A stretch of DNA of 64,000 nucleotides from positions 11,954 through 75,953 of the forward strand of contig JAFGFA010000014.1 in the NCBI GenBank assembly GCA_016931275.1. Reading direction: 5' to 3'. The position numbers and the translations under genes were made by a program. Each line of letters opens with the position of its first letter. The first letter of the stretch is position 1. The stretch is from Parachlamydiales bacterium. Its GTDB lineage: Bacteria; Chlamydiota; Chlamydiia; Chlamydiales; SM23-39. Positions 44,066 to 57,909 of this stretch are shown here, piece by piece. Under the pieces are notes generated by a model. The model did not search any database and was not told the DNA's origin. It was given only the letters and a program-made list of their open reading frames with translations.

Positions 44066-44706
44066 TCAAATTCTATTCAGGATTCTAATTTTTTCAATAT
44101 ATTCTATCACCTGGTTAATGACATTCCATTTGGGATTTAAGGCATCATGTTCCATTCCTTTTATTCGTAAATATGTAATATCTTGATTATTTTTCCTTGC
44201 TTTTTCGATAAGACGATCGGTAGAGGAACATCCGATATCTTTGCTACCGGTAATTACAAGAACAGGACAAGACAAATTAAGAAATTCTTGAAATTCTGTT
44301 TGATCTAAAGCATCTGACCAATAACGAAATGTTTGCCCAAACCAAAATTGATTAGGATCTGGGTTTTCTTTCATCTTTTGCATTTGTAATTCATAATCTT
44401 GCTGATTTTTAGGCAATCTATAGAGTCTTTTTGCGATAGGATTTATGTTTTGAATAACATTCCAGATATACTCTTTAAATGATTGATCACTACATCCTAC
44501 GATTGGAATGCATGCTGTAGGATGAATTGCATGGGATAATTTAATAGCAATGGGACCACCTTCGCTACCCCCCATGATAAATAATTGTCCATTCCAATTT
44601 GTGGATGTTCATGAAGATATTGAATAAGAGCTTTGTGATCTATAAGTCGTTTAGAGGGCATATTCCATATAATCTCTGGCTCTTGAACGCGTCCAATCCC
44701 GTTCAT
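44066..44706 (-). pseudogene. alpha/beta hydrolase, 5'-truncated and frameshifted at a C6/G6 homopolymer
   Basis: ORFs 44497-44706 and 44066-44575 join at the run CCCCCC at 44568-44573. One extra G would read ...DNYLSWGGSEGGPIAIK (GxSxG nucleophile), followed by Asp (GSKD) and His (MEHD). Confidence 0.7.
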
Positions 44707-45319
44707 GAAGTTTTTTTATATGCTGTAAAATGGCTCTTAACTTTTCCAGAATAATTTCTTCTAAAGAATAAATTAAAATATTTTGTTCGATAATTTCTTC
44801 ATAATTATGAAGTATGCCTTTAACAACTGGTTTAAAAACGATAGTTTCTTCTCTAGAAATTTCAATCATAGCTGTTGTTAGTGGCTGAGATTGCCAGGGA
44901 AATTGTGCATTAATTTTAAAAGCCTCTTGACCTTGAGGATGGGGAGATTTTTCTTTATATCTTTTCACAAAAATTTTAATAGGAGCAAATTCATGAATTC
45001 TATTTTCAGCATATTTACAGGCATTAGAAATTTCTTGCATTAAATCATTTCCTATAGGTGTTTTCGAAATAATTGAAAAATCTAAATCTTCAGAAAATCT
45101 ATAATTTCCAAAATATCCCTTTTTTAATGCTGTTCCTCCTTTAAATAGCAGAGAAGACTTTAAATTCTCCTGCTGATAAATTCCAACTAATAACCAAGAT
45201 AATAAATAATCTTGTTGTACTATATCTAATCTCAAACCAGTCTTTTGAGCAATTTTCTCTAATCTTTTTCGTAATGGCTTTAAAATCACTCCAAACCTAT
45301 ATTTTCTTGTATCATCCAT
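44651..45319 (-). CDS. abiEii: AbiEii/AbiGii-family nucleotidyltransferase toxin (type IV TA), apparently C-terminally short
   Basis: LLFKGGTALKKGYFGNYRFSEDLDFSI motif. The 222-aa protein ends right at ARDYMEYAL, where family members (about 280-300 aa from memory) continue. Confidence 0.78.
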   Translation of the reverse strand: MDDTRKYRFGVILKPLRKRLEKIAQKTGLRLDIVQQDYLLSWLLVGIYQQENLKSSLLFKGGTALKKGYFGNYRFSEDLDFSIISKTPIGNDLMQEISNACKYAENRIHEFAPIKIFVKRYKEKSPHPQGQEAFKINAQFPWQSQPLTTAMIEISREETIVFKPVVKGILHNYEEIIEQNILIYSLEEIILEKLRAILQHIKKLHERDWTRSRARDYMEYAL

Positions 45320-46059
45320 TTTTTATTATATATGCCCCTGCAATCTCCGATAGGGTTAAGTTTACGATATCCTTTTATCGGTACTTGTAAAAGAGTTTTT
45401 AAATAAGAATGTTTAACATTTAATTTTTCTAAAATCCACCCAAGACGTTTTATGACAGATTTATCCAGTTTCATTGAATATCGAATTATTTTTTCGAAAT
45501 TAATCTTATTTTTTGACATTTTAAAAGCATGTAATATTTCTTGAAAATCTCCGCAATACTGAGGCATCATTAAACCATCAAGTAGGGTTCTTTCCAAATC
45601 AGTAATAGAAATTTGGGATTGTCCAATCCATACTTTTTCTATTCCAAAATAATGTTCTTTTTTAATTTTAATAAAACGAAATTTATCCTTGTTTATAGAG
45701 CGAGGAATTGAACTAGAAGTCGGTGTGATGGCAAAAATAGTATTTGAAGATTGTTGAGTAAGATTATAATGTTTCATAGCAGTCCAATGACTAATTGCAG
45801 AAGTAACAACAAGGGCCATAGCAATTTCAAATTCATGAGGAGGATCGATAAACCCCGACTCTGCGCTAAATGCATAAACACCTTTTTTCAATCTTAAAAT
45901 CCAGCCCCCTTTTAGACAATAATGTAAAGCTTCCGTTACATAATTTGGTCGGATTTTAAGCTGAACAGCTATTTCTTTAGCCTGATCGATATTAAATATC
46001 TTTAGGCCTTGAGAGGCTATCTTTCGTAAAATATTAATACCGGCAATTGATTGTTTCAT
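45286..46059 (-). CDS. abiEi: AbiEi-family antitoxin / transcriptional regulator
   Basis: 257 aa. N-terminal wHTH-like IFNIDQAKEIAVQLKIRPNYVTEALHYCLKGGWILRLKKGVYAF. Overlaps abiEii by 34 nt. Confidence 0.78.
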   Translation of the reverse strand: MKQSIAGINILRKIASQGLKIFNIDQAKEIAVQLKIRPNYVTEALHYCLKGGWILRLKKGVYAFSAESGFIDPPHEFEIAMALVVTSAISHWTAMKHYNLTQQSSNTIFAITPTSSSIPRSINKDKFRFIKIKKEHYFGIEKVWIGQSQISITDLERTLLDGLMMPQYCGDFQEILHAFKMSKNKINFEKIIRYSMKLDKSVIKRLGWILEKLNVKHSYLKTLLQVPIKGYRKLNPIGDCRGIYNKKWMIQENIGLE

Positions 46060-46264: not shown

Positions 46265-46679
46265 ATTGCTGATGGGTCACTGATGGGACAGTAATAACTC
46301 CTTTTCCTTTATATCCATAATCAACTTTTTCGCCTCCTCCAGGCGCAGGGGAAAAAAGATCCTTCTACCAAAAGAGTAGAAGGATCTACTTTCTTTGCAT
46401 TCATGGCTCTTTGTAACAGAAGGCTAAGCACTCGATCAAATACTCCTTCCTTGTACCATCTGGCTAACCATCTATGTGCTGTAGCTCTATGAGCATACTG
46501 CGTAGATGTAGGGATATCACTCACCGACATCCATGGGATAAAACATAAAAGATAGAATTCCATATTTTTCTAAAATCTGTGCGAGGAGTTCCTCTTTGCA
46601 AAGGAGGTTCCCAATCCATGAAAGACTGAATCAAACTCCATTGCTCATTTGAAAGAAATTGAAAGTGTTTTTGAGACAT
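46265..46679 (-). mobile_element. IS5-family (IS427/IS1031-like) transposase remnant, frameshifted and 3'-truncated
   Basis: Own translation from ATG 46679 gives MSQKHFQFLSNEQWSLIQSFMDWEPPLQRGTPRTDFRKIWNSIFYVLSHGCR*. After a frameshift it continues SDIPTSTQYAHRATAHRWLARWYKEGVFDRVL...LLVEGSFFP, then (after a shift) GGEKVDYGYKGKGV. There is no DDE catalytic core. Confidence 0.7.
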
Positions 46680-46827
46680 ATGGTGCTCCTAAAGTTGTCT
46701 TCAGAAGGTTAAGTATATTAAATAAAATATTCGCTGAAATAGTTTTGTAATTTCAAAATATTAATTAACTTTTTATTTCTTGCTAAAGATTGACTAAAAT
46801 AAATCGTTTAAAATAAAATCGCTTTTT

Positions 46828-49056
46828 ATGAAAAAAACAAAGTCAATATTATCTTTAATAGTTACTCAATTCTTTGGAGCATTTAATGATAATGCTTGGA
46901 AAATCATGGTCTTTGTTTTAGCAACAAGATCTACCGTACCATTTTTCTTTCACACAGATAACCACGAAATCGACCATCAATTAAAAGCTATGTTGACATT
47001 GTTTGTTTTTTTGATTCCCATGACACTTTTTTCTCTTCCAACAGGTTTTATTTCTGATCGTATTAGCAAACGCACTGTGATTGTTATAGCCAAATGGTTA
47101 GAAGTTGCAATTATGTTGAGCTCTACCATTTTTCTTTTTGTTTTTCCTCAAAAACTCGTTTTTTCTTTTTTTTTTCTAGCGGCTATGGGTATACAAAGTG
47201 CTTTTTTTAGTCCTGCCAAATACGGCATCTTACCAGAGCTTTTAGAAGAACAAGATCTTTACAAAGGCAATGGACTAATAGAGATGTGGACAATGCTTGC
47301 TATTATCATAGGTACTGGCATGGGACCTATATTTTTAGCCCCAGACAAAATGGGAATGCTACCACATTTAACCGCTATAGGGCCATTAATATTAACCCTG
47401 TTATCAATAGTGGGTCTAATCGGAGCTTATTTTGTTCCCAAGGTTCCTGCGGTCCGATCAGGAAATGTTTCAGTCATAAAAACTATTAAGAGTTCTGTTC
47501 CAATCATTAAAAATAATAAAAAACTGCTTTTGGCCATTGTAAGCATGGGATTTTATTGGCTTTTCATTAGCTTGTTCGGTCAAAATATTCTGGTTTATGC
47601 CAAAGAATTGGCAAAAGATCTTCGAACGGGAGAGCTTATTCAGGGATTATTTCCCGCTTCTTTTGGAGTTGGAGTGGCCATTGGTGCTCTTTTAAGCGGC
47701 ATTTTTTCTCGTCAGGAAATTGTTTATGGCATGATTCCTATGGGAGCCACGGGTTTTGCCTTTTTTTCTATTTTATTTAGTTTTTTACCAATACCATTTT
47801 ATGCAAATTTTATCATAATAATGTTTATAGGCATATCTTCTGGTCTGTTTATAGTTCCCGTTCGATCTATCATTCAATGGTCTTCTCCAATAGAAGCACG
47901 AGGTTCGATCATTGCTTTTAGTAATTTTTTCAATTTTATAGGTGTGATCTGTGGATCCTTAATAACAACAGGGCTATCCTTTTTAGGTCTTTCTATCCGA
48001 TTGATCTTAATCATTTCTGCTCTCTTAATCGCTGCAGCGGCTATTTGGTCTTTATCTCTATTAAATGTGAAAGCCAGAATCATCAAAATCTTTTATCAAA
48101 TCATTACTTTTTTCTATTTTGATAAAATTGAAGTTATTGATCCACAAAAGCTTCCCGACAAAAAACCAATTTTGTTTGTTGCTCTACATCGCAATGGCGC
48201 TACGGATGGTTTTGTTTATCTGGCTGCTTTGAAGCCGTATTTCACGTATCTTGTTGCTAAAAGACTGCGCAAGACGTTCATAGGCAAAATATTTTTTCAT
48301 GGGATAGAGGTCATCAGAAGAAAAGATGGGGAAAAGGATCGGGGGAAAACTAATATTAAAGCTATTGAACAATGCCTTGCCCTCTTAAAGAACGGTGAAA
48401 ATATTTTTATATTTCCAGAAGGAACTAGCAACCTCGGTCTTGAACCTCTTCCTTTCCAGAAAGGAGCTGCACGTATAGCAGAGTCATTTATTGCACAAGA
48501 GGAATCTCTTATTATTGTTCCTTTGGGGATCAGATATAGTTCTCCAACAAAAATGGGAAGCCGAGTAAAAATTTTAGTTGGAGATCCTTTCTATTTTGAC
48601 CATCCTTCTGATAAAAATACCATTCACCAACAAATTGAAAAAGCACTTTTAGAATTAGCTGTCATAGGACCATCTGAAGAAGAAAAATCACCTTCTTATT
48701 TAAGTTTGCAGTCGTTAGTCGAATCAAAATATATTTTATCTAAAAACAAATGGTTTGCACTCCTTACAAACTTGTTGACTTTTCCTATTATTGCTGTCGG
48801 TTTTTTAGTTAATTTGCCACCGCTGTTTTTTGGTTATTTGGCCGGAAAAATATTTTCGGATGCTAGAAATGTCGTTTCTCTTTGGCGTATTATCATTGGA
48901 TTCCCAGTTTTTTTCCTGTGGATGGCTTTGTTATTCTATCTTTGCATCTCTTTTCACCAACCATTTCTGTTTCTAAGCTATCTTAGTTTGACTGTTTTAA
49001 GCGCTAAGATATACGGACCTTGGAAAATGAATTTTCGACGAGGAATTAAGATATGA
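46828..49056 (+). CDS. fusion: MFS lysophospholipid-transporter-like (LplT-type) domain + PlsC-type acyltransferase + C-terminal TM helices
   Basis: 742 aa. About 12 N-terminal TM helices, acyltransferase motifs HRNGATDG (HX4D) and FPEGTS, then two or three more TM helices. Confidence 0.8.
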   Translation: MKKTKSILSLIVTQFFGAFNDNAWKIMVFVLATRSTVPFFFHTDNHEIDHQLKAMLTLFVFLIPMTLFSLPTGFISDRISKRTVIVIAKWLEVAIMLSSTIFLFVFPQKLVFSFFFLAAMGIQSAFFSPAKYGILPELLEEQDLYKGNGLIEMWTMLAIIIGTGMGPIFLAPDKMGMLPHLTAIGPLILTLLSIVGLIGAYFVPKVPAVRSGNVSVIKTIKSSVPIIKNNKKLLLAIVSMGFYWLFISLFGQNILVYAKELAKDLRTGELIQGLFPASFGVGVAIGALLSGIFSRQEIVYGMIPMGATGFAFFSILFSFLPIPFYANFIIIMFIGISSGLFIVPVRSIIQWSSPIEARGSIIAFSNFFNFIGVICGSLITTGLSFLGLSIRLILIISALLIAAAAIWSLSLLNVKARIIKIFYQIITFFYFDKIEVIDPQKLPDKKPILFVALHRNGATDGFVYLAALKPYFTYLVAKRLRKTFIGKIFFHGIEVIRRKDGEKDRGKTNIKAIEQCLALLKNGENIFIFPEGTSNLGLEPLPFQKGAARIAESFIAQEESLIIVPLGIRYSSPTKMGSRVKILVGDPFYFDHPSDKNTIHQQIEKALLELAVIGPSEEEKSPSYLSLQSLVESKYILSKNKWFALLTNLLTFPIIAVGFLVNLPPLFFGYLAGKIFSDARNVVSLWRIIIGFPVFFLWMALLFYLCISFHQPFLFLSYLSLTVLSAKIYGPWKMNFRRGIKI

Positions 49057-49901
49057 ACAAAAAAATATTGCCGCATGAACTCCTATTTGGAGTGTTCATG
49101 CTATTGACTTATTTGCGATTAATCATCAAAACACATTTTAATAATCCTTATGCATTGACGTTATTAGCTTTCATCATACTGAATGTGATCTTGATTTTAA
49201 AAAAAGAAGGCAATCTAAGTTGGCGCTTCCGTCTTTCTTTCTATCCCCTTACGATGAATACCCTTTTTGTCCTATTGGGAAACATCGTACCTATTATTCA
49301 TCCACAAAAAGAAGATCTTTTCTTACAAAAAATAGATTCGTGGCTGATTGGTGGCAACTTATCATTAAAGATAGAATCTTTCATACATCCCCTTGTGACA
49401 GAAATTATGACTGTTGGGTATAGTTTTTTTTGGCTTTATATTCTTATTACTTTTTTTCATTATTTATTTTCTAAATTAGAAGTGGCTAAAAAATTCTATA
49501 TTGGTCTTTTTACTATCTATAGTATTGGTCTCATCTGCTACACATATGTCCCTGCAATTGGTCCCTATGTGGCTATGAGTGAACAATTTTCTGTTCCTCT
49601 AGAAGGATATTTTTTGACCAAATGGTTGCATTTTATCGTGCCGATTGGCACTAATGGCTGTGATGTGTTTCCCAGCCTTCACTGTGCTGTTTCTTCTTAT
49701 ATTCTTTTTTTCGATCGGGTTTATACTCCTAGAAGATATAGATGGTGTTTGCCTATTTGTATCTTGATATGGATTTCTACAATTTATTTGCGTTATCACT
49801 ACTTTATCGACCTTTTAGTTGGTTTTGCCTTGGTGCCCGTTGCTTTAAAATTAGCTTTTAAATATGAGGAGGAACAGAATGATCTACCTGTTAAAATTTA
49901 A
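49053..49901 (+). CDS. PAP2-superfamily membrane phosphotransferase, Aur1/IPC-synthase / sphingomyelin-synthase-like
   Basis: 282 aa polytopic. FPSLHCA (C2-like) and YLRYHYFIDLLVG (HxxxD C3-like), with no clear KxxxxxxRP C1 motif. ATGA overlap with the upstream gene. Confidence 0.68.
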   Translation: MNKKILPHELLFGVFMLLTYLRLIIKTHFNNPYALTLLAFIILNVILILKKEGNLSWRFRLSFYPLTMNTLFVLLGNIVPIIHPQKEDLFLQKIDSWLIGGNLSLKIESFIHPLVTEIMTVGYSFFWLYILITFFHYLFSKLEVAKKFYIGLFTIYSIGLICYTYVPAIGPYVAMSEQFSVPLEGYFLTKWLHFIVPIGTNGCDVFPSLHCAVSSYILFFDRVYTPRRYRWCLPICILIWISTIYLRYHYFIDLLVGFALVPVALKLAFKYEEEQNDLPVKI

Positions 49902-52353
49902 TGCTCTAGAAGCTCAAAACATTCAACTTTCCGGAGGAAAAGGCGCTAATCTAGCTAAGCTAAGTTCAGCCCATTTTCCGGTTCCATCAGGTTTTATTGT
50001 TTCTTCCAAAGCCTATCTTGATTTTGTTTCACAGGCAGTTAATGTAAATGTGAATTTCGATTCTATCCAACGGATAGAACAAGCGGAAAGTTGGCAAAAA
50101 TATTTACATACATTGCCTTTGCCGCGTGCTCTTATTACAGAAATTACCCGTTTTTTAGGTTCTTCCAATAAACGCTATGCTGTTAGGTCCTCTTCTACTA
50201 TGGAAGATCTATCTTCTGCGGCGTTTGCTGGACAGCATGATACTTTTTTAAATTGTTCCGGAGTAGAAGAGATTCTATTAAAAATCAAAGAGTGCTTTAT
50301 TTCTCTATGGAATGATCGAGCGATCCATTATCGTCAGCAGAAAGGTTTTGACCATCGTCAAGCTGCGATGGCCGTTGTGGTACAAGAAATGATTGATTGT
50401 GATGTTGCTGGTGTAGGCTTTTCTGTGAATCCGATTAATGGTGACCTCGATGAAATATTGATTGATGCAAATTATGGGCTTGGGGAAACAGTTGTCTCTG
50501 GAGAAGGGGAAATTGACCATATAGTTATTGATAAAAAATCTCTAAAGATAAAGGCCATTACCATAGGCAATAAGACGAAAAAAATGGTGAGCTCGACTCA
50601 AAATACACAACTCGTTGTTGTGGATAAGCCAAATGAGCTATGTTTGACAGAAGAAGATATTCAAAAACTTTCAAGTTTAATCCTACAGGTCGAAGAGTAT
50701 TATCGCTTTCCTCAAGATATTGAATGGGGAATTAAAGAAGGCAAAATTTATCTCTTACAGTCAAGAACCATCACAACGATCCCTCCTCATTGGACCCGAG
50801 ACGAGTCTGCAGAACGTTATCCTAATGTAGTGACGCCCTTGGCTTGGGATTTTATCGAAGAAGGTTTTCATGAATCTTTAACACATTCTTTTAATATGAT
50901 GGGATTTCCTATCTATACCGGAAAATGGTTTGCCCTTTTCGATCACTATGTTTATGGAAACCAAAATGCTGTCAAATTATATATGCACAATGCTGGATTT
51001 AACCTTAAAAATTTGGAGGAGGTACGCTCTCTTATACCCTACTTTCGTCAAAAGTATCAATGGGTACAGCAATTGCCCTATCAATGGATAAGGGATCTGG
51101 ATCATTATCTTCTCTCCATTGGTCAATTTATGAGTCAAAATTTAGATTGTAAAACTCCTAAGGAAATTTGGAGCTATATTAAAGAAATATCGGATCTTGG
51201 AAAATCTTACTTTCGACCCAATATCGCTATTTCTATTACACAAAGTTCTCTTTATAGGTTGCTATACAATCTCTTACTTTTGATTTTTCCTAAAGAGAAG
51301 AGCTTGCAGTTACTCGATGCTTTTACTTCTACCTGTGAAACAAAAACAGCTCAAATCAATAAAGAAATCTTCAATCTTACTCAAATAGTTGTTAGCAATA
51401 CACTACTAAACGACTTGTTACAGAAATATGATTCTAAAGAGATCCTTACTAAAAATATGCTCTCACCATTTCCTGAATTTATACAGGATTTCAATCGCTT
51501 TTTACACTCTCATGGACATCGTGAGCACGATATTGATCCTTATCACCCTCTATGGATTGAAACACCCTGGATACTTTTAGATACAATCAAACTTGCGTTA
51601 CAAAATCATCAAAATAAAACTCCTTTAGAACAGGAAAGGGAAAATAAAATTAAGGCTTTTGATGCAGAACAAGAACTCTTTGCTCAATTACCCGAAGATC
51701 TGCATTTTTTCTTTTCCGAAATCATTCGGCTTTTGAAAGTTTATACTATGCTGGATGATGTCGAGCATTATCAAACAACCCGTCTCTCTATGCCGTTGCG
51801 TAAAGGGTTAAAAGCGTTAGGAAAGGTGCTCCAAGAAAGGAACCTTTTGAAAGAACCCTTGGACCTCTTTTTTTCTACCAAAAAAGAACTTGCAGATGCG
51901 ATTGAAAATGAAACTTGGCAGAAATATACAGAAATTATTGAACAAAACAAGAGTGAGTATTTAAAACGAAAAGAGATAATGCCATCCTGGGTTTATGGTG
52001 AAGAAGATACCTTTGCAGAAACGGATCAGGAACACTTGTCAGGCATTCCTGGAAGTCCCGGACAAGTTGAAGGATCGGTCTTTATTGTAAAATCACTAGA
52101 TGATTTTGCCAAAGTACCTAAAGGGGCTGTTCTTGTTGCCAAAACGACTAATCCCTCCTGGACTTCTCTTTTTTACACAGCCTCAGCAATTATTACCGAG
52201 TCAGGAGGTCCTCTTTCTCATGGAGCTGTCACAGCAAGAGAAATGGGCATTCCTGCTGTTATGGCTGTAAAAAAGATCATGAACAAGGTTGCAAATGGCC
52301 AAAAAGTCCTAGTAAATGGAAACACAGGTAAAGTGTATTTAATAGAAAAATAA
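49879..52353 (+). CDS. PEP-utilising enzyme: PPDK_N ATP-grasp + central domain + swivel phosphohistidine domain, no TIM-barrel (rifampin-phosphotransferase-like architecture)
   Basis: ATG 49879 after GAGGAGG (the track starts at 49864). N-terminus LSGGKGANLAKLS..FPVPSGFIV, and C-terminus AKTTNPSWTSLFYTASAIITESGGPLSHGAVTAREMGIPAV. The 5' end overlaps the PAP2 gene. Confidence 0.85.
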   Translation: MIYLLKFNALEAQNIQLSGGKGANLAKLSSAHFPVPSGFIVSSKAYLDFVSQAVNVNVNFDSIQRIEQAESWQKYLHTLPLPRALITEITRFLGSSNKRYAVRSSSTMEDLSSAAFAGQHDTFLNCSGVEEILLKIKECFISLWNDRAIHYRQQKGFDHRQAAMAVVVQEMIDCDVAGVGFSVNPINGDLDEILIDANYGLGETVVSGEGEIDHIVIDKKSLKIKAITIGNKTKKMVSSTQNTQLVVVDKPNELCLTEEDIQKLSSLILQVEEYYRFPQDIEWGIKEGKIYLLQSRTITTIPPHWTRDESAERYPNVVTPLAWDFIEEGFHESLTHSFNMMGFPIYTGKWFALFDHYVYGNQNAVKLYMHNAGFNLKNLEEVRSLIPYFRQKYQWVQQLPYQWIRDLDHYLLSIGQFMSQNLDCKTPKEIWSYIKEISDLGKSYFRPNIAISITQSSLYRLLYNLLLLIFPKEKSLQLLDAFTSTCETKTAQINKEIFNLTQIVVSNTLLNDLLQKYDSKEILTKNMLSPFPEFIQDFNRFLHSHGHREHDIDPYHPLWIETPWILLDTIKLALQNHQNKTPLEQERENKIKAFDAEQELFAQLPEDLHFFFSEIIRLLKVYTMLDDVEHYQTTRLSMPLRKGLKALGKVLQERNLLKEPLDLFFSTKKELADAIENETWQKYTEIIEQNKSEYLKRKEIMPSWVYGEEDTFAETDQEHLSGIPGSPGQVEGSVFIVKSLDDFAKVPKGAVLVAKTTNPSWTSLFYTASAIITESGGPLSHGAVTAREMGIPAVMAVKKIMNKVANGQKVLVNGNTGKVYLIEK

Positions 52354-52517
52354 TTGGACGTCCTCTTTCAAAACCGATCTAGAAATCTTTTATGCTCATA
52401 TTATCTAAATAATCTACAATAACATTAGGATCTGTTTTTACAGCATCTTCGTGCATAACTTTATCGGTTTCATCAAGAATGCAGAACAATCTTTTTATTA
52501 CATCGTAATCATGGCAT

Positions 52518-52540
52518 GTTCTGAACGCGTCCAACCACCT
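52518..52540. repeat. dispersed 23-nt motif GTTCTGAACGCGTCCAACCACCT, copy 1
   Basis: 22/23 identical to 56972-56994. A degenerate copy lies at 57970-57989, and a 13-nt core TGAACGCGTCCAA also occurs inside abiEii at 44684-44696. Confidence 0.55.
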
Positions 52541-52602
52541 CTAAAACGACAAAGTCAAGATGATTCTTAACTTTTTTTTATTTCAAAATTCCCATATGAT
52601 TT

Positions 52603-52953
52603 TCAATATAAAAACAGCTTCTTCAATCTTTCGTATGACAGAAGTTGATATACAAATCTTATAGTCCAAGCACAGGAAATTGCTGCATCAGAATAAACAA
52701 AAGGTCTGCCAATATGCTCTCTATTTTTAGAAGAAAGCCACTGTTTTATAGCATCTTCGAAGAACCAAAAAGTAATACTTCCCCGATTTATCAAAGATTT
52801 GTTATATTGATTCCAGTTATCATTTTGGTAATGTTTCATAAGACACCTTGGGTTTTGTCGCTTTAAGATGTCTATTTTATTTTCTAGAGATGTTCTTGTA
52901 ACAATATTTTTTGAAAATGTTCTTTGGTGATTAAGGACTTATGCAACAAAGCC
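52603..52953 (-). mobile_element. IS5-family, IS903-group remnant (terminal inverted repeat + first ~78 transposase codons)
   Basis: ORF 52603-52839, NWNQYNKSLINRGSITFWFFEDAIKQWL...GRPFVYSDAAISCAWTIRFVYQL, parallels the IS903 Tnp N-terminus. The minus-strand end GGCTTTGTTGCATAAGTCC (52953-52935) matches the remembered IS903 IR GGCTTTGTTGAATAAATCG at 16/19. Confidence 0.75.
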
Positions 52954-54723: not shown

Positions 54724-55446
54724 TTATTTATATGAATAATCTTTCTCGATTTCCTCAAACATCTCAGAATAAATAATAGAACCGGAATAAATTTTAATTT
54801 TATCTGTTAAATCTTTTTTCATCATTCCCTGTTGATTAAGATCTGCGTTAACAATAATCAAAATAAAATCTAATGCAGGAAAATAATTTTTCAAAGTGTC
54901 ATACAAAAGATAAGAGTATTCCTTATTGATCGACAAATTATCTTGATTGCGAAATCTATAATTTTCATGCATAGATAAAGACCAAGAATGTCTAATAAAG
55001 CAAACCCTGCCCTGATATTGTTTTAAATCGCGAAATCTTTGAATACGACGCGTATATTTTTCCTGGAGCTGTCTCATTGGCTTAAAAACAGGCGATTGAA
55101 AAGAATTTTCTTCATGAGAAAACTCCAAGTGATAATAATCATGCATCAAAATACCATTACTAAAATATGGCTTTAAAAACCTTTCATCTAAAAAATATTC
55201 AAAATCATCCTTCAAAATATCAATGAATTTCATTCCATCTATGCTAAGCATCCAATCAAAAGGATAAGCTGCTTGTCTCAAATTATATTTTCTCAGTTCT
55301 GAAGCTGGTGTACAAATCGATCCCAAACTAATGAACAGCACGTTATCGACACGATTATTCTCTACGATTGTTTCATTAGAAGCTAAAAACCCCCAAACAG
55401 AAACTCCTAAAATTACAGAAAGAAAAAAACTTTTATATTGAAACAT
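54724..55446 (-). CDS. DUF1796-like protein (putative papain-like fold), paralog A, signal/TM N-terminus
   Basis: 240 aa. FISLGSICTPASELRKYNLRQAAYPFDWMLS is the pattern I associate with Pfam DUF1796. Paralogous to 57124-57909. Confidence 0.62.
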   Translation of the reverse strand: MFQYKSFFLSVILGVSVWGFLASNETIVENNRVDNVLFISLGSICTPASELRKYNLRQAAYPFDWMLSIDGMKFIDILKDDFEYFLDERFLKPYFSNGILMHDYYHLEFSHEENSFQSPVFKPMRQLQEKYTRRIQRFRDLKQYQGRVCFIRHSWSLSMHENYRFRNQDNLSINKEYSYLLYDTLKNYFPALDFILIIVNADLNQQGMMKKDLTDKIKIYSGSIIYSEMFEEIEKDYSYK

Positions 55447-56971: not shown

Positions 56972-56994
56972 GTTCTGAACGCGTCTAACCACCT
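56972..56994. repeat. dispersed 23-nt motif, copy 2
   Basis: GTTCTGAACGCGTCTAACCACCT, in the intergenic region between NERD and DUF1796-B. Confidence 0.55.
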
Positions 56995-57123: not shown

Positions 57124-57909
57124 TTATAGATTATTAGAAATCAACTTAGAGTAAAAATCCTTATAAGAATCTATTTGTTCATCTATTCTAACCATTAAAA
57201 TATGATCAAAAAATTGTTCTTCTATTGAAAACCCTGATTTGTCATGACCATTCATAATAATCAATTGAAAATCTAAATTAGAAAAATACCTTCTAAGCGT
57301 TATATAAAGTTTTTCCGCATATTCAGGAGTAATATCAATATTCTCCTTAACTTTCCATATACGATTAGGATCAGAAAGCGAATATGGATATGCTGTTCTA
57401 ACAAAAAATACTTTCCCAGAATAGTTAGCAAGTTGCCTAAAACGATCAATTCTCCTCTGACATTTTGTTATAAAGCCTTCTATAGCATAAGCAGCATCTT
57501 GCCAATCCCCTTCATTAGGGAATTCCAAACAATAGTAATCATTCAATAGTGTTTGTCCTGCGATTCTTAAGACATTGGGATTCAAAAAATAAAGAAAATC
57601 ATCCTTAATAATTTCTATCAGTTTTTCGCCATCAAAAGAAACGATCCAATCAAAAGGAAAGGCAGCTTTTCTGATTCCGCATTCCCTATGCATAAGAGCT
57701 GTTTTGCAAACAGATCCCAAGCTAACAAATAGAGGTTCTTGATGCAATTGCTGTTCAATATTTCCTCCCAGATCAGAATCTTTCGTATCGCCAGCATGCG
57801 ACGGAAATAAATAAAACAATGGAATGATAAAAATGAAAAACTTCAGAAAGATCTTCTTAATTATTAACTTCATCAAATCTGAAACCATACAATAATAAGA
57901 CCTGGTCAT
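57124..57909 (-). CDS. DUF1796-like protein, paralog B, signal/TM N-terminus
   Basis: 261 aa. LFVSLGSVCKTALMHRECGIRKAAFPFDWIVS, and RRIDRFRQL aligns with RRIQRFRDL of paralog A. The likely start is MKLIIKK at 57873. Confidence 0.62.
   Translation of the reverse strand: MTRSYYCMVSDLMKLIIKKIFLKFFIFIIPLFYLFPSHAGDTKDSDLGGNIEQQLHQEPLFVSLGSVCKTALMHRECGIRKAAFPFDWIVSFDGEKLIEIIKDDFLYFLNPNVLRIAGQTLLNDYYCLEFPNEGDWQDAAYAIEGFITKCQRRIDRFRQLANYSGKVFFVRTAYPYSLSDPNRIWKVKENIDITPEYAEKLYITLRRYFSNLDFQLIIMNGHDKSGFSIEEQFFDHILMVRIDEQIDSYKDFYSKLISNNL

Follow-up and report, generated by a model that had tools for sequence, protein, structure and literature searches.

The locus lies in a 64-kb window, the whole stretch of Parachlamydiales DNA that was analysed, and consists of three co-directional genes with an insertion sequence remnant on either side. 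In the list, 'cassette-type' refers to the acyltransferase-PAP2-dikinase trio that recurs in other genomes, as described below.

46265..46679, minus strand: N-terminal remnant of a transposase of the IS5 family (IS427/DUF4096-type), degenerate and carrying a frameshift
46828..49056, plus strand: g1, ORF of 742 aa
46828..48072, plus strand: residues 1-415 of g1, MFS domain of the LplT/Aas type, resembling lysophospholipid flippases and nearest to sequences from chlamydiae
48073..49056, plus strand: residues 416-742 of g1, complete cassette-type acyltransferase, made up of a PlsC-superfamily domain and a conserved C-terminal TM domain
49053..49901, plus strand: g2, ORF of 282 aa, Aur1-like integral membrane protein of the PAP2_3 type, predicted to be a lipid phosphotransferase or phosphodiesterase
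49879..52353 (alternative start 49864), plus strand: g3, ORF of 824 aa, soluble dikinase with ATP-grasp, helical substrate and swivel-His domains in the rifampin-phosphotransferase (Rph) architecture
52603..52953, minus strand: 5' end of an IS5-family (IS903-group) element, with its terminal inverted repeat and the first ~66 transposase codons

The preliminary description of this DNA had reported three overlapping ORFs of these lengths, domains and motifs between an IS427-like and an IS903-like remnant, and all of this was borne out. From the ORF coordinates, g1 and g2 meet in an ATGA overlap at 49053 and g2 and g3 share 23 nt (49879-49901); an alternative ATG for g3 at 49864 would give a protein of 829 aa. 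Both IS remnants are real. In the first, the ORF 46321-46563 matches DUF4096 (E=1.4e-3) and NF033580 IS5_3 (E=1.3e-4), and the minus strand from 46679 reads MSQKHFQFLSNEQWSLIQSFM...RGTPRTDFRKIWNSIFYVL in another frame. In the second, the transposase codons run from 52839 to 52603 on the minus strand (DDE_Tnp_1_5, E=3.6e-11; NF033579, E=2e-13) and are preceded on that strand, at ~52953, by GGCTTTGTTGCATAAGT, which we take to be a good match to the IS903 inverted repeat. That the trio was acquired as one unit by way of these elements, as had been suggested, is plausible, but such an acquisition is neither recent nor demonstrated, since the remnants belong to different IS groups, are both degenerate and have no second copy in the 64-kb window, the GC3 of the trio genes equals that of their neighbours, and their nearest relatives are just ~50% identical. 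Besides IS debris, the trio has an AbiE toxin-antitoxin pair and a Fic gene in its flanks.

The first gene had been read as an LplT-like MFS domain joined to PlsC. Its N-terminal half is indeed of the LplT/Aas type (MFS_1, 82.5 bits by domain search; below the respective cutoffs, 256 bits on NF006386, the Aas N-terminus, and 105 bits on NF008397, LplT). It shares 42-45% identity with chlamydial Aas and with P0184, a chlamydial MFS that stands alone, and it is joined to a PlsC-superfamily acyltransferase (Acyltransferase PF01553, 57.4 bits). The acyltransferase, however, is not PlsC itself but a distinct type belonging to the cassette, with a conserved C-terminal TM domain seen in g1 as extra hydrophobic segments at about residues 643-730. 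The translation contains HRNGATDG and FPEGTS, and all of the family motifs (HRNGAvDG, FPEGTS.LGP, PlgihYe and Nlpp..aD..Nvi.LWr) are present; 81 cluster representatives score E<=1e-30. In a sliding identity comparison, residues ~430-742 were nearer to cassette acyltransferases than to those of Aas. We considered and rejected the possibility that g1 is a truncated Aas, as this comparison and the family motifs mark its acyltransferase half as complete and cassette-type. Judged by its sequence, g1 uniquely combines an MFS domain of the chlamydial LplT type with a complete cassette acyltransferase. Since the catalytic motif of the family is HX5D instead of HX4D, its chemistry may differ. An invariant Ser occupies the position of the lysophosphatidate-binding Arg of PlsC, an Arg that the Aas acyltransferases likewise lack.

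The second protein had been described as resembling IPC synthase and sphingomyelin synthase-type transferases more than simple phosphatases, and Pfam, profile and fold comparisons all place it with Aur1 and not with PgpB. It scores higher on PAP2_3 (PF14378, 57.5 bits) than on PAP2 (32.9 bits), and its best PDB profile match is AUR1 (E=1.2e-5). The top Foldseek matches of its AF2 model (pLDDT 93.8) are Aur1 structures (9vj4 and 9ivc, TM 0.62 and 0.59), whereas PgpB structures reach 0.26-0.40, with B. subtilis PgpB at 0.40; the fold search also returned 8bm3, a PgpB structure that contains a farnesyl ligand. FPSLHCA and RYHYFIDLLVG are present in the translation, and there is no 'RP' dipeptide anywhere in it and hence no K-x6-RP motif, so g2 is not an ordinary PgpB phosphatase with an intact C1 motif. 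An alignment of 35 sequences shows no variation at H210, H249 or D253, and the canonical C3 Arg is replaced by S-T, exactly as in Aur1. The distribution of Lys and Arg gives a predicted N-in/C-in topology, which would place the H210/H249/D253 site of g2 on the periplasmic face, with the acyltransferase and the kinase predicted to be cytoplasmic.

As had been proposed, the third protein is an ATP-grasp and swivel-His enzyme without a TIM barrel. The domain search matched PPDK_N (276 bits) and PEP-utilizers (79.9 bits) but no TIM barrel; Rph_4th comes from the precomputed annotation, and no TM segment was predicted. A two-segment alignment to Listeria Rph (5fbs, E=4e-76) covers all three domains, including ...ESGGPLSHGAV. 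g3 reached none of the NCBIfam equivalog cutoffs, scoring 335 bits on Rph (cutoff 999), 324 bits on PigC (cutoff 1300) and 299 bits on RedH. Across phyla, the substrate domain of this kinase is about as conserved as its ATP-grasp domain (median 47% and 49%), which argues for one common substrate as opposed to variable xenobiotics.

The trio is a unit, as the preliminary description had suggested, and occurs well beyond this genome. We surveyed 80 genome loci with a PAP2 relative, and at 41 of them, in at least eight phyla, the acyltransferase, PAP2 and kinase genes followed one another in this order, the spacers being small or negative; recurring in 41 independent genomes, the arrangement is far beyond chance. 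Apart from the Aas/LplT link described below, no other neighbour recurs, and no gene for head-group synthesis (inositol, choline or CDP-alcohol enzymes) or ceramide synthesis recurs near it. Natural fusions of the acyltransferase to PAP2_3 occur in five cluster representatives, and in both of the contigs that were read the kinase follows. An Aas or LplT-type MFS gene also recurs beside the cassette: in the window copy and at loci L029, L030 and L090 it is either fused to the cassette or next to it on the upstream or downstream side, tblastn MFS matches suggest the same link at L036 and L064, and MFS-domain matches lie within 10 kb of 10 of the 41 cassettes. At L030 and L090 the adjoining gene encodes a full Aas with its own AMP-binding domain. 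PAP2 relatives stand alone at 26 loci, some of them beside DprE1/DprE2-like genes (polyprenyl-P-sugar metabolism), and others lie in different lipid operons. Since the tree intermingles these with the cassette copies, the PAP2 enzyme has no strict need of its two partners; in H. cinaedi, PAP2 and the kinase are present but the acyltransferase is missing. TetR or MarR regulators lie near the cassette at two loci, and a fatty-acid hydroxylase is nearby in some. No plasmid copy was found, and PADLOC returned no match. The carriers are mostly soil, freshwater or gut metagenome bacteria (Verrucomicrobiota, Acidobacteriota, Planctomycetota and others), which leaves the earlier suggestion of a role specific to host lyso- or sphingolipids unsupported as a general function. 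Our literature search, in agreement with the initial reading, found no characterised pathway or report on an acyltransferase-PAP2-dikinase trio. What the locus represents is a single copy of an uncharacterised three-enzyme membrane-lipid cassette, widespread, of conserved gene order and without prior description, and the window copy is uniquely fused to an MFS domain.

Our best reading, possible rather than probable, is that the cassette would run a loop of lipid salvage or turnover. The PAP2 enzyme, its His-His-Asp site on the periplasmic face lacking the basic residues that bind phosphomonoesters, would attack an outer-leaflet phospholipid or lysophospholipid at its phosphodiester and hand the phospho-head group to water or an acceptor. 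The neutral lipid alcohol set free (diacyl- or monoacylglycerol) would flip spontaneously and be re-phosphorylated by the soluble cytoplasmic dikinase through its ATP to AMP and Pi chemistry. The acyltransferase would then re-acylate lyso forms, yielding phosphatidate for the cell's own phospholipid synthesis, while LplT/Aas would provide a parallel, direct route for lysophospholipids; in this Parachlamydiales genome, the chlamydial LplT-type flippase domain is fused ahead of the acyltransferase. Two reports (PMC7988496, PMC11663969) state that SMS-family enzymes can work as phospholipase C and yield diacylglycerol, and diacylglycerol release via a phospho-His intermediate is described for Aur1 (PMC13133130). 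Such a loop is suggested by the conserved trio at 41 of 80 loci, the acyltransferase-PAP2_3 fusions and the Aas/LplT link, by the likeness of g2 to Aur1 with its invariant, outward-facing triad beside a TM-less, Rph-aligned kinase, and, at the level of residues, by the conserved kinase substrate domain and the Ser in place of the PlsC Arg. Against it, we know of no PEP-utiliser or Rph-family enzyme that phosphorylates a membrane lipid and of no precedent for a soluble 824-aa kinase acting on diacylglycerol, whose phosphorylation in bacteria is already carried out by DgkA. Were a phosphatase or transferase and a kinase to share one lipid as substrate, a futile cycle could result, and the atypical HX5D motif, the 26 solo PAP2 loci and the H. 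cinaedi pair also fit poorly.

The closest structural relative of g2 is a synthase, not a hydrolase, and the cassette could instead make a specialised membrane lipid, with a novel phospholipid or phosphosphingolipid as product. Here the kinase would make a phosphorylated precursor (lipid alcohol or head group) and the acyltransferase would acylate it on the cytoplasmic side, after which, following flipping, the Aur1-like enzyme would move the phospho-head group or phospholipid moiety to an outer-leaflet acceptor lipid. The fusions suggest consecutive steps in one assembly, the tight, self-contained cassette resembles a small biosynthetic operon, and the TetR/MarR regulators and fatty-acid hydroxylase near some loci would fit. 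Given that no head-group or ceramide gene recurs nearby, that the neighbour which does recur, Aas/LplT, is a repair system and not a biosynthetic one, and that we know of no unusual lipid common to the Verrucomicrobiota, Bacillota and Campylobacterota carriers, we consider this doubtful. An outside phosphatase paired with an inside kinase would also suit recycling of a polyprenyl phosphate carrier, in which PAP2 would dephosphorylate undecaprenyl-PP, undecaprenyl-P or a polyprenyl-P-linked intermediate and the dikinase would re-phosphorylate the free polyprenol. At the periplasmic face, C55-PP is a substrate of PAP2 enzymes such as PgpB and LpxT, the fold search recovered 8bm3, and DprE1/DprE2-like genes adjoin some solo relatives. 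However, the C1 Lys/Arg and the C3 Arg, used to bind mono- and pyrophosphates, are absent from the family, g2 is far nearer in fold to Aur1 than to PgpB, and the acyltransferase and the Aas/LplT link are left without a role, which makes this quite improbable.

Two further readings turn on the dikinase. It might activate fatty acids (fatty acid + ATP to acyl-phosphate + AMP + Pi) as donors for the cassette acyltransferase and so stand in for the AMP-binding acyl-ACP synthetase domain, which g1, with its Aas-like MFS-acyltransferase order, is missing. In the homologs PigC and RedH, phosphorylation serves to activate carbonyl oxygens, and the HX5D motif is atypical. Set against this, full Aas proteins with that domain adjoin the cassette at L030 and L090, H. 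cinaedi has the kinase without the acyltransferase, PAP2 as the most tightly linked partner goes unexplained, and we know of no PlsC-superfamily enzyme that uses acyl-phosphate; we hold this to be very improbable. Least probable of all is detoxification, with an Rph-like kinase phosphorylating a lipophilic antibiotic or xenobiotic while the membrane proteins adjust the envelope; the copy in the window would then be part of a mobile defence or accessory island. Rifampin phosphotransferases are the nearest solved and named relatives of g3, the flanking IS debris, AbiE pair and Fic gene would suit an island, and MarR or TetR regulators are close by at two loci. Yet g3 scores far under the Rph cutoff, its substrate domain is conserved across phyla, neither a PADLOC match nor a plasmid copy was found, and the obligate linkage to two lipid enzymes would go unexplained.

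The proposed salvage loop has counterparts in its logic. In E. coli DgkA recycling, a neutral lipid from the outer face is trapped by phosphorylation at the inner face, and eukaryotic LPP/lipid-kinase uptake likewise dephosphorylates outside and re-phosphorylates inside; DgkA, a small integral membrane kinase, and the LPP/lipid-kinase families are unrelated to the cassette proteins, and the analogy is functional only. E. coli LplT with Aas and the chlamydial MFS-acyltransferase-AMP-binding Aas share with g1 the order of MFS, then acyltransferase, and bona fide Aas genes adjoin the cassette elsewhere. In contrast to Aas, g1 has no acyl-ACP synthetase domain, has a cassette-type acyltransferase (HX5D, EGTS, C-terminal TM domain) and widely misses the Aas/LplT cutoffs.

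Yeast Aur1, the catalytic subunit of inositol phosphorylceramide synthase (PAP2_3/LPT family), is the best match of g2 in both sequence (E about 1e-5) and fold, at an identity of only about 17-18%. The two have in common an 8-TM core, the triad (H255/H294/D298 in Aur1), the motifs vPAxxP, FPSLH and ST.YL.HYF.D, the lack of C1 K-x6-RP and C3 Arg, and an active site on the non-cytoplasmic face, predicted for g2. Unlike Aur1, g2 has no Kei1-like partner gene, carries an extra invariant Arg (R247) two residues ahead of the nucleophile His, shares its operon with genes for a kinase and an acyltransferase, and is found in bacteria mostly not known for ceramide or phosphatidylinositol. Finally, g3 shares with Rph (Listeria 5FBS/5HV1), PigC/RedH and phenylphosphate synthase the TIM-less architecture of ATP-grasp, helical and swivel phospho-His domains, and with Rph the conserved context of the catalytic His, which would imply the reaction ATP + X-OH to AMP + Pi + X-O-P. 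Its scores place it in a subfamily distinct from Rph and PigC, and, in contrast to Rph, this kinase is always encoded beside a PAP2_3 gene; its substrate is probably a lipid.

The genes g1 (an MFS-acyltransferase fusion), g2 (an Aur1-like PAP2_3 enzyme) and g3 (an Rph-architecture dikinase) represent one copy of a cassette in which acyltransferase, PAP2_3 and kinase genes follow one another in that order. The preliminary description knew of no characterised pathway with this trio and, consistent with this, no account of it was found in the literature searched; all three proteins come from known superfamilies, but the subfamily that each forms is uncharacterised and the conserved combination of the three is undescribed. 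On balance, we lean towards the view that the cassette is an unrecognised bacterial lipid pathway, present in at least eight phyla, in which an Rph-family dikinase would be the first lipid kinase of the PEP-utiliser/Rph family and an Aur1-type phosphotransferase would be physically coupled to a new acyltransferase subfamily, either making a new phospholipid class or salvaging foreign or outer-leaflet phospholipids to phosphatidate. In the chlamydial symbiont, this pathway would be wired to a lysophospholipid flippase.

The window consists of chlamydial housekeeping genes and a variable stretch from ~41 to 58 kb, which holds an AbiE toxin-antitoxin pair, IS debris, g1-g3, a Fic protein and two DUF1796 genes:

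44066-44706, minus strand: two overlapping ORFs (169 and 69 aa) with a weak alpha/beta-hydrolase match, probably a frameshifted pseudogene
44651-46059, minus strand: AbiEii (nucleotidyltransferase toxin, 222 aa) and AbiEi (antitoxin, 257 aa), a type IV toxin-antitoxin pair directly upstream of the left IS remnant
46679 to 46265, minus strand: IS5/IS427-type remnant, a frameshifted transposase N-terminus
46828-49056, plus strand: g1, 742 aa, MFS_1 and Acyltransferase (Pfam)
49053-49901, plus strand: g2, 282 aa, PAP2_3 (57.5 bits) ahead of PAP2 (32.9 bits; Pfam)
49879-52353, plus strand: g3, 824 aa, PPDK_N and PEP-utilizers (Pfam), with an alternative ATG upstream at 49864
~52953 to 52603, minus strand: IS5/IS903-type end, GGCTTTGTTGCATAAGT at ~52953 followed by ~66 transposase codons
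53269-54225, plus strand: Fic-domain protein, 318 aa, HPFNDGNGR, just past the right IS remnant, with weak similarity to XopAC/AvrAC effector and Doc toxin models
54724-55446 and 57124-57909, minus strand: two DUF1796 paralogues (putative papain-like cysteine peptidases) within the variable region

Coordinates and translations bear out three co-directional overlapping ORFs, the motifs quoted in the preliminary description and the absence of K-x6-RP from g2, and the gene calls are identical in an independent assembly of the same locus. A perfect hairpin with a 12-13 bp stem (AGATCCTTCTAC...GTAGAAGGATCT) lies within the IS427-like remnant at 46357-46387 and scores as bidirectional and terminator-like, and a 23-nt repeat is shared by 52518-52540 and 56972-56994. 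Since promoter and terminator counts equalled the shuffled expectation, that scan is uninformative. Rfam gave no match near the window cassette, and a defence-system identity for the cassette was rejected, as PADLOC returned no defence-system match.

The catalytic H-H-D of the PAP2 superfamily is present in g2 as FPSLH(210) and RYH(249)YFID(253), and these residues are invariant in the 35-sequence family alignment, as are E9, D88, D95 and R247. H210, H249 and D253 align with Aur1 H255, H294 and D298, a catalytic triad confirmed by mutagenesis (PMC13133130). PF14378 matches g2 at 57.5 bits (cutoff 27). When the family profile was compared with the PDB, yeast AUR1 was the best match (E=1.2e-5 over ~180 residues, covering vPAxxP, FPSLH and ST.YL.HYF.D), whereas B. 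subtilis PgpB aligns at the last of these motifs only. A confident AlphaFold2 model of g2 (pLDDT 93.8, pTM 0.90) was compared by Foldseek, which placed two Aur1 cryo-EM structures at ranks 1 and 2 (TM 0.62 and 0.59) and gave lower values for B. subtilis PgpB (0.40), E. coli PgpB (0.26-0.28) and SMSr (0.39). Thus, of the two eukaryotic families proposed for comparison, Aur1 and SMS, it is Aur1 that both profile and fold place first. Furthermore, g2 has no RP dipeptide and hence no C1 motif (K-x6-R-P), and at the position of the C3 arginine the profile alignments show S-T in g2 and Aur1 alike but S-R in B. subtilis PgpB. Like Aur1, g2 therefore lacks the C1 Lys/Arg and C3 Arg, residues that bind phosphomonoesters, and in this it differs from the phosphomonoesterase-type PAP2 enzymes (PgpB, LPP and acid phosphatases); the identity that would have counted against the original assignment, an ordinary phosphatase of the PgpB/UppP type in which C1 is intact, is not what we find.

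From the distribution of lysine and arginine across the family, which assigns both termini and loops 2-3 and 6-7 to the cytoplasm, the active site of g2 is predicted to lie on the periplasmic face. This topology agrees with that of natural acyltransferase-PAP2 fusions if, as we assume, the C-terminal TM segments of the acyltransferase are even in number. Chlamydial PAP2_3 relatives stand alone or lie in an Ole-like operon. The latter case is Ca. Sacchlamyda saccharinae (locus L054, 5954-10723), where a PAP2_3 gene whose product is 41% identical is the last gene of an operon of another kind, FabH/OleA-like thiolase / 3beta-HSD/OleD-like reductase / metallo-beta-lactamase / weak AMP-binding protein / PAP2_3, similar to the Ole-type lipid clusters for olefins or beta-lactones.

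The kinase g3 has the Rph architecture of ATP-grasp, substrate domain and swivel-His. It aligns with Listeria rifampin phosphotransferase (5fbs/5hv1) in two segments that span all three domains (E=4e-76) and cover both the helical substrate domain and ESGGPLSHGAV, the context of the swivel His. It was described as TIM-less and is so, Pfam finding PPDK_N and PEP-utilizers only; lacking the PF02896 TIM barrel, it is not a PEP synthase or pyruvate phosphate dikinase. No NCBIfam equivalog cutoff is reached, whether for Rph (335 against 999 and 229 against 1700), PigC (324 against 1300) or the PEP synthase models (350-413 against 598-945), and g3 contains no TM segment. Its closest relatives are all ~835 aa, 50-53% identical and Verrucomicrobia-type wherever the organism is named, with no chlamydial relative closer than these. 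Across phyla, the substrate domain of the kinase is about as conserved as the ATP-grasp domain (median identity 47% and 49%, respectively), which argues for one common substrate.

The composition of g1 is mixed. Its best full-length relatives are chlamydial Aas proteins (~42% identical over residues 1 to ~600), but sliding-window identity to 40 Aas proteins and 31 cassette acyltransferases switches type at the MFS/acyltransferase linker: residues 1-415 resemble Aas/LplT and share 45% identity with P0184, a stand-alone chlamydial MFS protein, whereas residues ~430-742 are cassette-type throughout. All cassette-family motifs are present, namely HRNGA[VT]DG, FPEGTS.LGP, PlgihYe and the C-terminal TM motif Nlpp..aD..Nvi.LWr, and PF01553 matches at 57.4 bits (cutoff 23). 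Canonical PlsC-type enzymes carry an HX4D catalytic motif and an EGTR acceptor-phosphate motif. In all 31 cassette acyltransferases the catalytic motif is HX5D (H-R/K-N-G-A-x-D; H-R-N-G-A-T-D at g1 residues 454-460), one residue longer than the HX4D of the aligned Aas acyltransferases, and an invariant serine follows EGT (31/31; g1 529-537) where T. maritima PlsC has arginine. With 298 bits against a cutoff of 1221 and no AMP-binding domain in Pfam or NCBIfam searches, g1 is not an Aas equivalog; nor does it reach the LplT equivalog NF008397 (103-105 bits, cutoff 297). Its MFS half is homologous to LplT and of the Aas MFS type without being an equivalog by score, and a transport role is putative. 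The proposed fusion of an LplT-like MFS with a PlsC acyltransferase thus stands as far as the Aas/LplT-type MFS and the PF01553 domain go, but the acyltransferase is of the cassette type and the LplT cutoff is missed.

As the acyltransferase is wholly cassette-type from ~430 and the switch falls at the linker, we rejected both a truncated Aas and a recombination between an upstream Aas acyltransferase and a cassette acyltransferase as the source of g1; a deletion reaching from the linker of Aas up to the point where the cassette acyltransferase begins is a possible origin. Among the 150 representatives listed, no other protein has an acyltransferase behind an N-terminal extension of ~415 residues, which argues that the fusion is unique to this lineage. 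On the chlamydial contigs L086-L088, the stand-alone LplT-type MFS P0184 is flanked by a CesT-type chaperone gene on one side and, on the other, by a 360-aa ORF with no Pfam match; that this neighbour might be a relative of the cassette acyltransferase was ruled out on comparison.

The preliminary description had made the standing of the trio depend on its co-occurrence elsewhere, and this is what we found. A scan of one genome per species with the PAP2 family alignment as query gave 572 relatives; in the best 80 of these loci, examined by tblastn with the window proteins, acyltransferase, PAP2 and kinase occur in the same order in 41, neither partner is near PAP2 in 26, and a kinase without an acyltransferase occurs in one, Helicobacter cinaedi. 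The PAP2-to-kinase spacer in these loci is mostly -6 to 134 nt. In Pedosphaera parvula, four adjacent genes read MFS / acyltransferase / PAP2_3 / PPDK_N-Rph_4th-PEP-utilizers, and a second contig reads acyltransferase / PAP2 / kinase. Carriers include Verrucomicrobiota, Acidobacteriota, Planctomycetota, Elusimicrobiota and alpha-, beta-, gamma- and deltaproteobacterial lineages, together with Campylobacter taeniopygiae, Aneurinibacillus danicus (Bacillota) and a Roseiflexaceae genome.

When 916 flanking ORFs were clustered, no partner recurred beyond the three core genes, nor did a fourth gene adjoining the cassette that would be comparable to the Kei1 subunit of IPC synthase; the cassette is therefore self-contained. 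The most frequent extra neighbours are a C92 amidase and an unannotated 352-aa ORF, in 6 loci each. The former, a 482-aa permuted papain-like amidase (Peptidase_C92, YaeF/YiiX family), is the immediate upstream neighbour of the cassette at L012 (7230-8678) and five other Verrucomicrobia-type loci. The only riboswitch found with Rfam, for cobalamin (73 bits), is at L004 (4106-6461); together with a TonB-dependent receptor it immediately precedes the cassette acyltransferase, all on one strand, and it goes with the receptor, not the cassette. Solo and cassette-linked PAP2 copies interleave in a rough NJ tree, which rules out the solo genes as a distinct subfamily.

Searched exhaustively with g1 residues 416-742, a set of 1.84 billion cluster representatives yielded 81 relatives at E<=1e-30, typically of 380-440 aa with the acyltransferase domain N-terminal. 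Five representatives (691-730 aa) are natural acyltransferase-PAP2_3 fusions, and in both fusions with readable contigs the kinase follows; one of these loci reads TetR / AT-PAP2 / kinase / full Aas / fatty-acid hydroxylase. The Elusimicrobiaceae locus has a genuine Aas (1533 bits, cutoff 1349), itself preceded by MarR, immediately upstream of the cassette, a place taken in Akkermansiaceae by an Aas/LplT-type MFS that stands alone. Ten of the 41 cassettes have MFS-domain matches no more than 10 kb away; of those checked, the ones at L029 and L030 are Aas/LplT-type and that of Pedosphaera is generic DHA3-type. The fused and adjacent cases make the Aas/LplT lysophospholipid repair system the one recurrent functional neighbour of the cassette, in four different arrangements.

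The patchy spread across phyla indicates that the cassette moves as a unit. Both flanking IS remnants are real by transposase homology. Each is an N-terminal transposase fragment only, the right one with an IS903-like inverted repeat, GGCTTTGTTGCATAAGT, which is a good match to the terminal repeat of IS903. Since the two belong to different subgroups (IS427 and IS903) and neither element is intact, they do not make a composite transposon. Acquisition of the block as a unit bracketed by IS elements, as first proposed, is not shown: the fragments differ in subgroup, are degenerate and are each unique within the window, GC3 of g1-g3 (0.28-0.31) overlaps that of their neighbours (0.17-0.29), and the nearest relatives are only ~50% identical. 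Plasmid-borne spread was rejected, as none of 72,556 plasmids gave a tblastn match to the PAP2 protein. The MFS half groups with chlamydial sequences and the other parts with Verrucomicrobia-type ones, making an old import of the cassette, followed by fusion to a resident flippase, plausible.

How might the three enzymes work together? Our best explanation, which we hold tentatively, is a lipid salvage or turnover loop, the simplest scheme, we infer, that uses all cassette parts. PAP2 would act at the outer leaflet, and the acyltransferase and ATP-dependent kinase in the cytoplasm. In the outer leaflet, the Aur1-like enzyme would cleave the phospho-head group from a phospholipid or lysophospholipid, or transfer it, to leave diacyl- or monoacylglycerol. 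Only neutral lipids cross membranes fast without a flippase, and the released neutral lipid would flip to the inner leaflet, where the dikinase would re-phosphorylate it (ATP to AMP and Pi) and the acyltransferase would complete phosphatidate. LplT/Aas would provide a direct lysophospholipid route in parallel. SMS-family relatives can, according to PMC7988496 and PMC11663969, act as phospholipase C, and diacylglycerol release by Aur1 runs via a phospho-His intermediate (PMC13133130).

Dedicated synthesis of a new lipid by the cassette would employ the same three enzymes, and we consider it rather unlikely. Recycling of polyprenol phosphate by the cassette seems to us improbable. Xenobiotic phosphorylation by the dikinase has the Rph architecture of g3 on its side; the Rph cutoff is far from reached, and we rate it the least probable of these readings, just behind formation of an acyl phosphate by the same enzyme, itself very improbable. 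The salvage or turnover loop remains our preferred reading.

What stands of the original interpretation is the enzyme assignments and the unit character of the genes; neither specificity for host lipids or sphingolipids nor acquisition through the IS elements is shown. The cassette is a compact three-enzyme module distributed over hundreds of species genomes. To our knowledge, its kinase family has so far been known for small-molecule phosphorylation only (rifampin, phenol and prodiginine precursors); if the cassette kinase phosphorylates a lipid, the chemistry of the PEP-utiliser family reaches membranes. Should the PAP2 enzyme genuinely transfer head groups, then lipid synthesis or remodelling in bacteria follows a route regarded as eukaryotic. 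In chlamydiae, the unique fusion to a flippase points to a way of feeding on host lipids.

Comparison with known systems places the cassette among several partial counterparts. Aur1 is an antifungal target, and the cassette contains its bacterial counterpart. In Burkholderiales/Betaproteobacteria MAGs (L023 6369-7856 and L024 4358-5296), a solo PAP2_3 gene lies beside a FAD_binding_4/ALO oxidase and a short-chain dehydrogenase, neighbours that recall DprE1/DprE2 of polyprenyl-phosphoribose epimerisation, a pathway in which mycobacteria too use a PAP2 phosphatase. As far as we know, the textbook account of bacterial membrane-lipid turnover is limited to a few model enzymes such as DgkA, LplT/Aas and PgpB, and it is E. 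coli DgkA together with LplT/Aas that provides the functional precedent for the loop proposed here.
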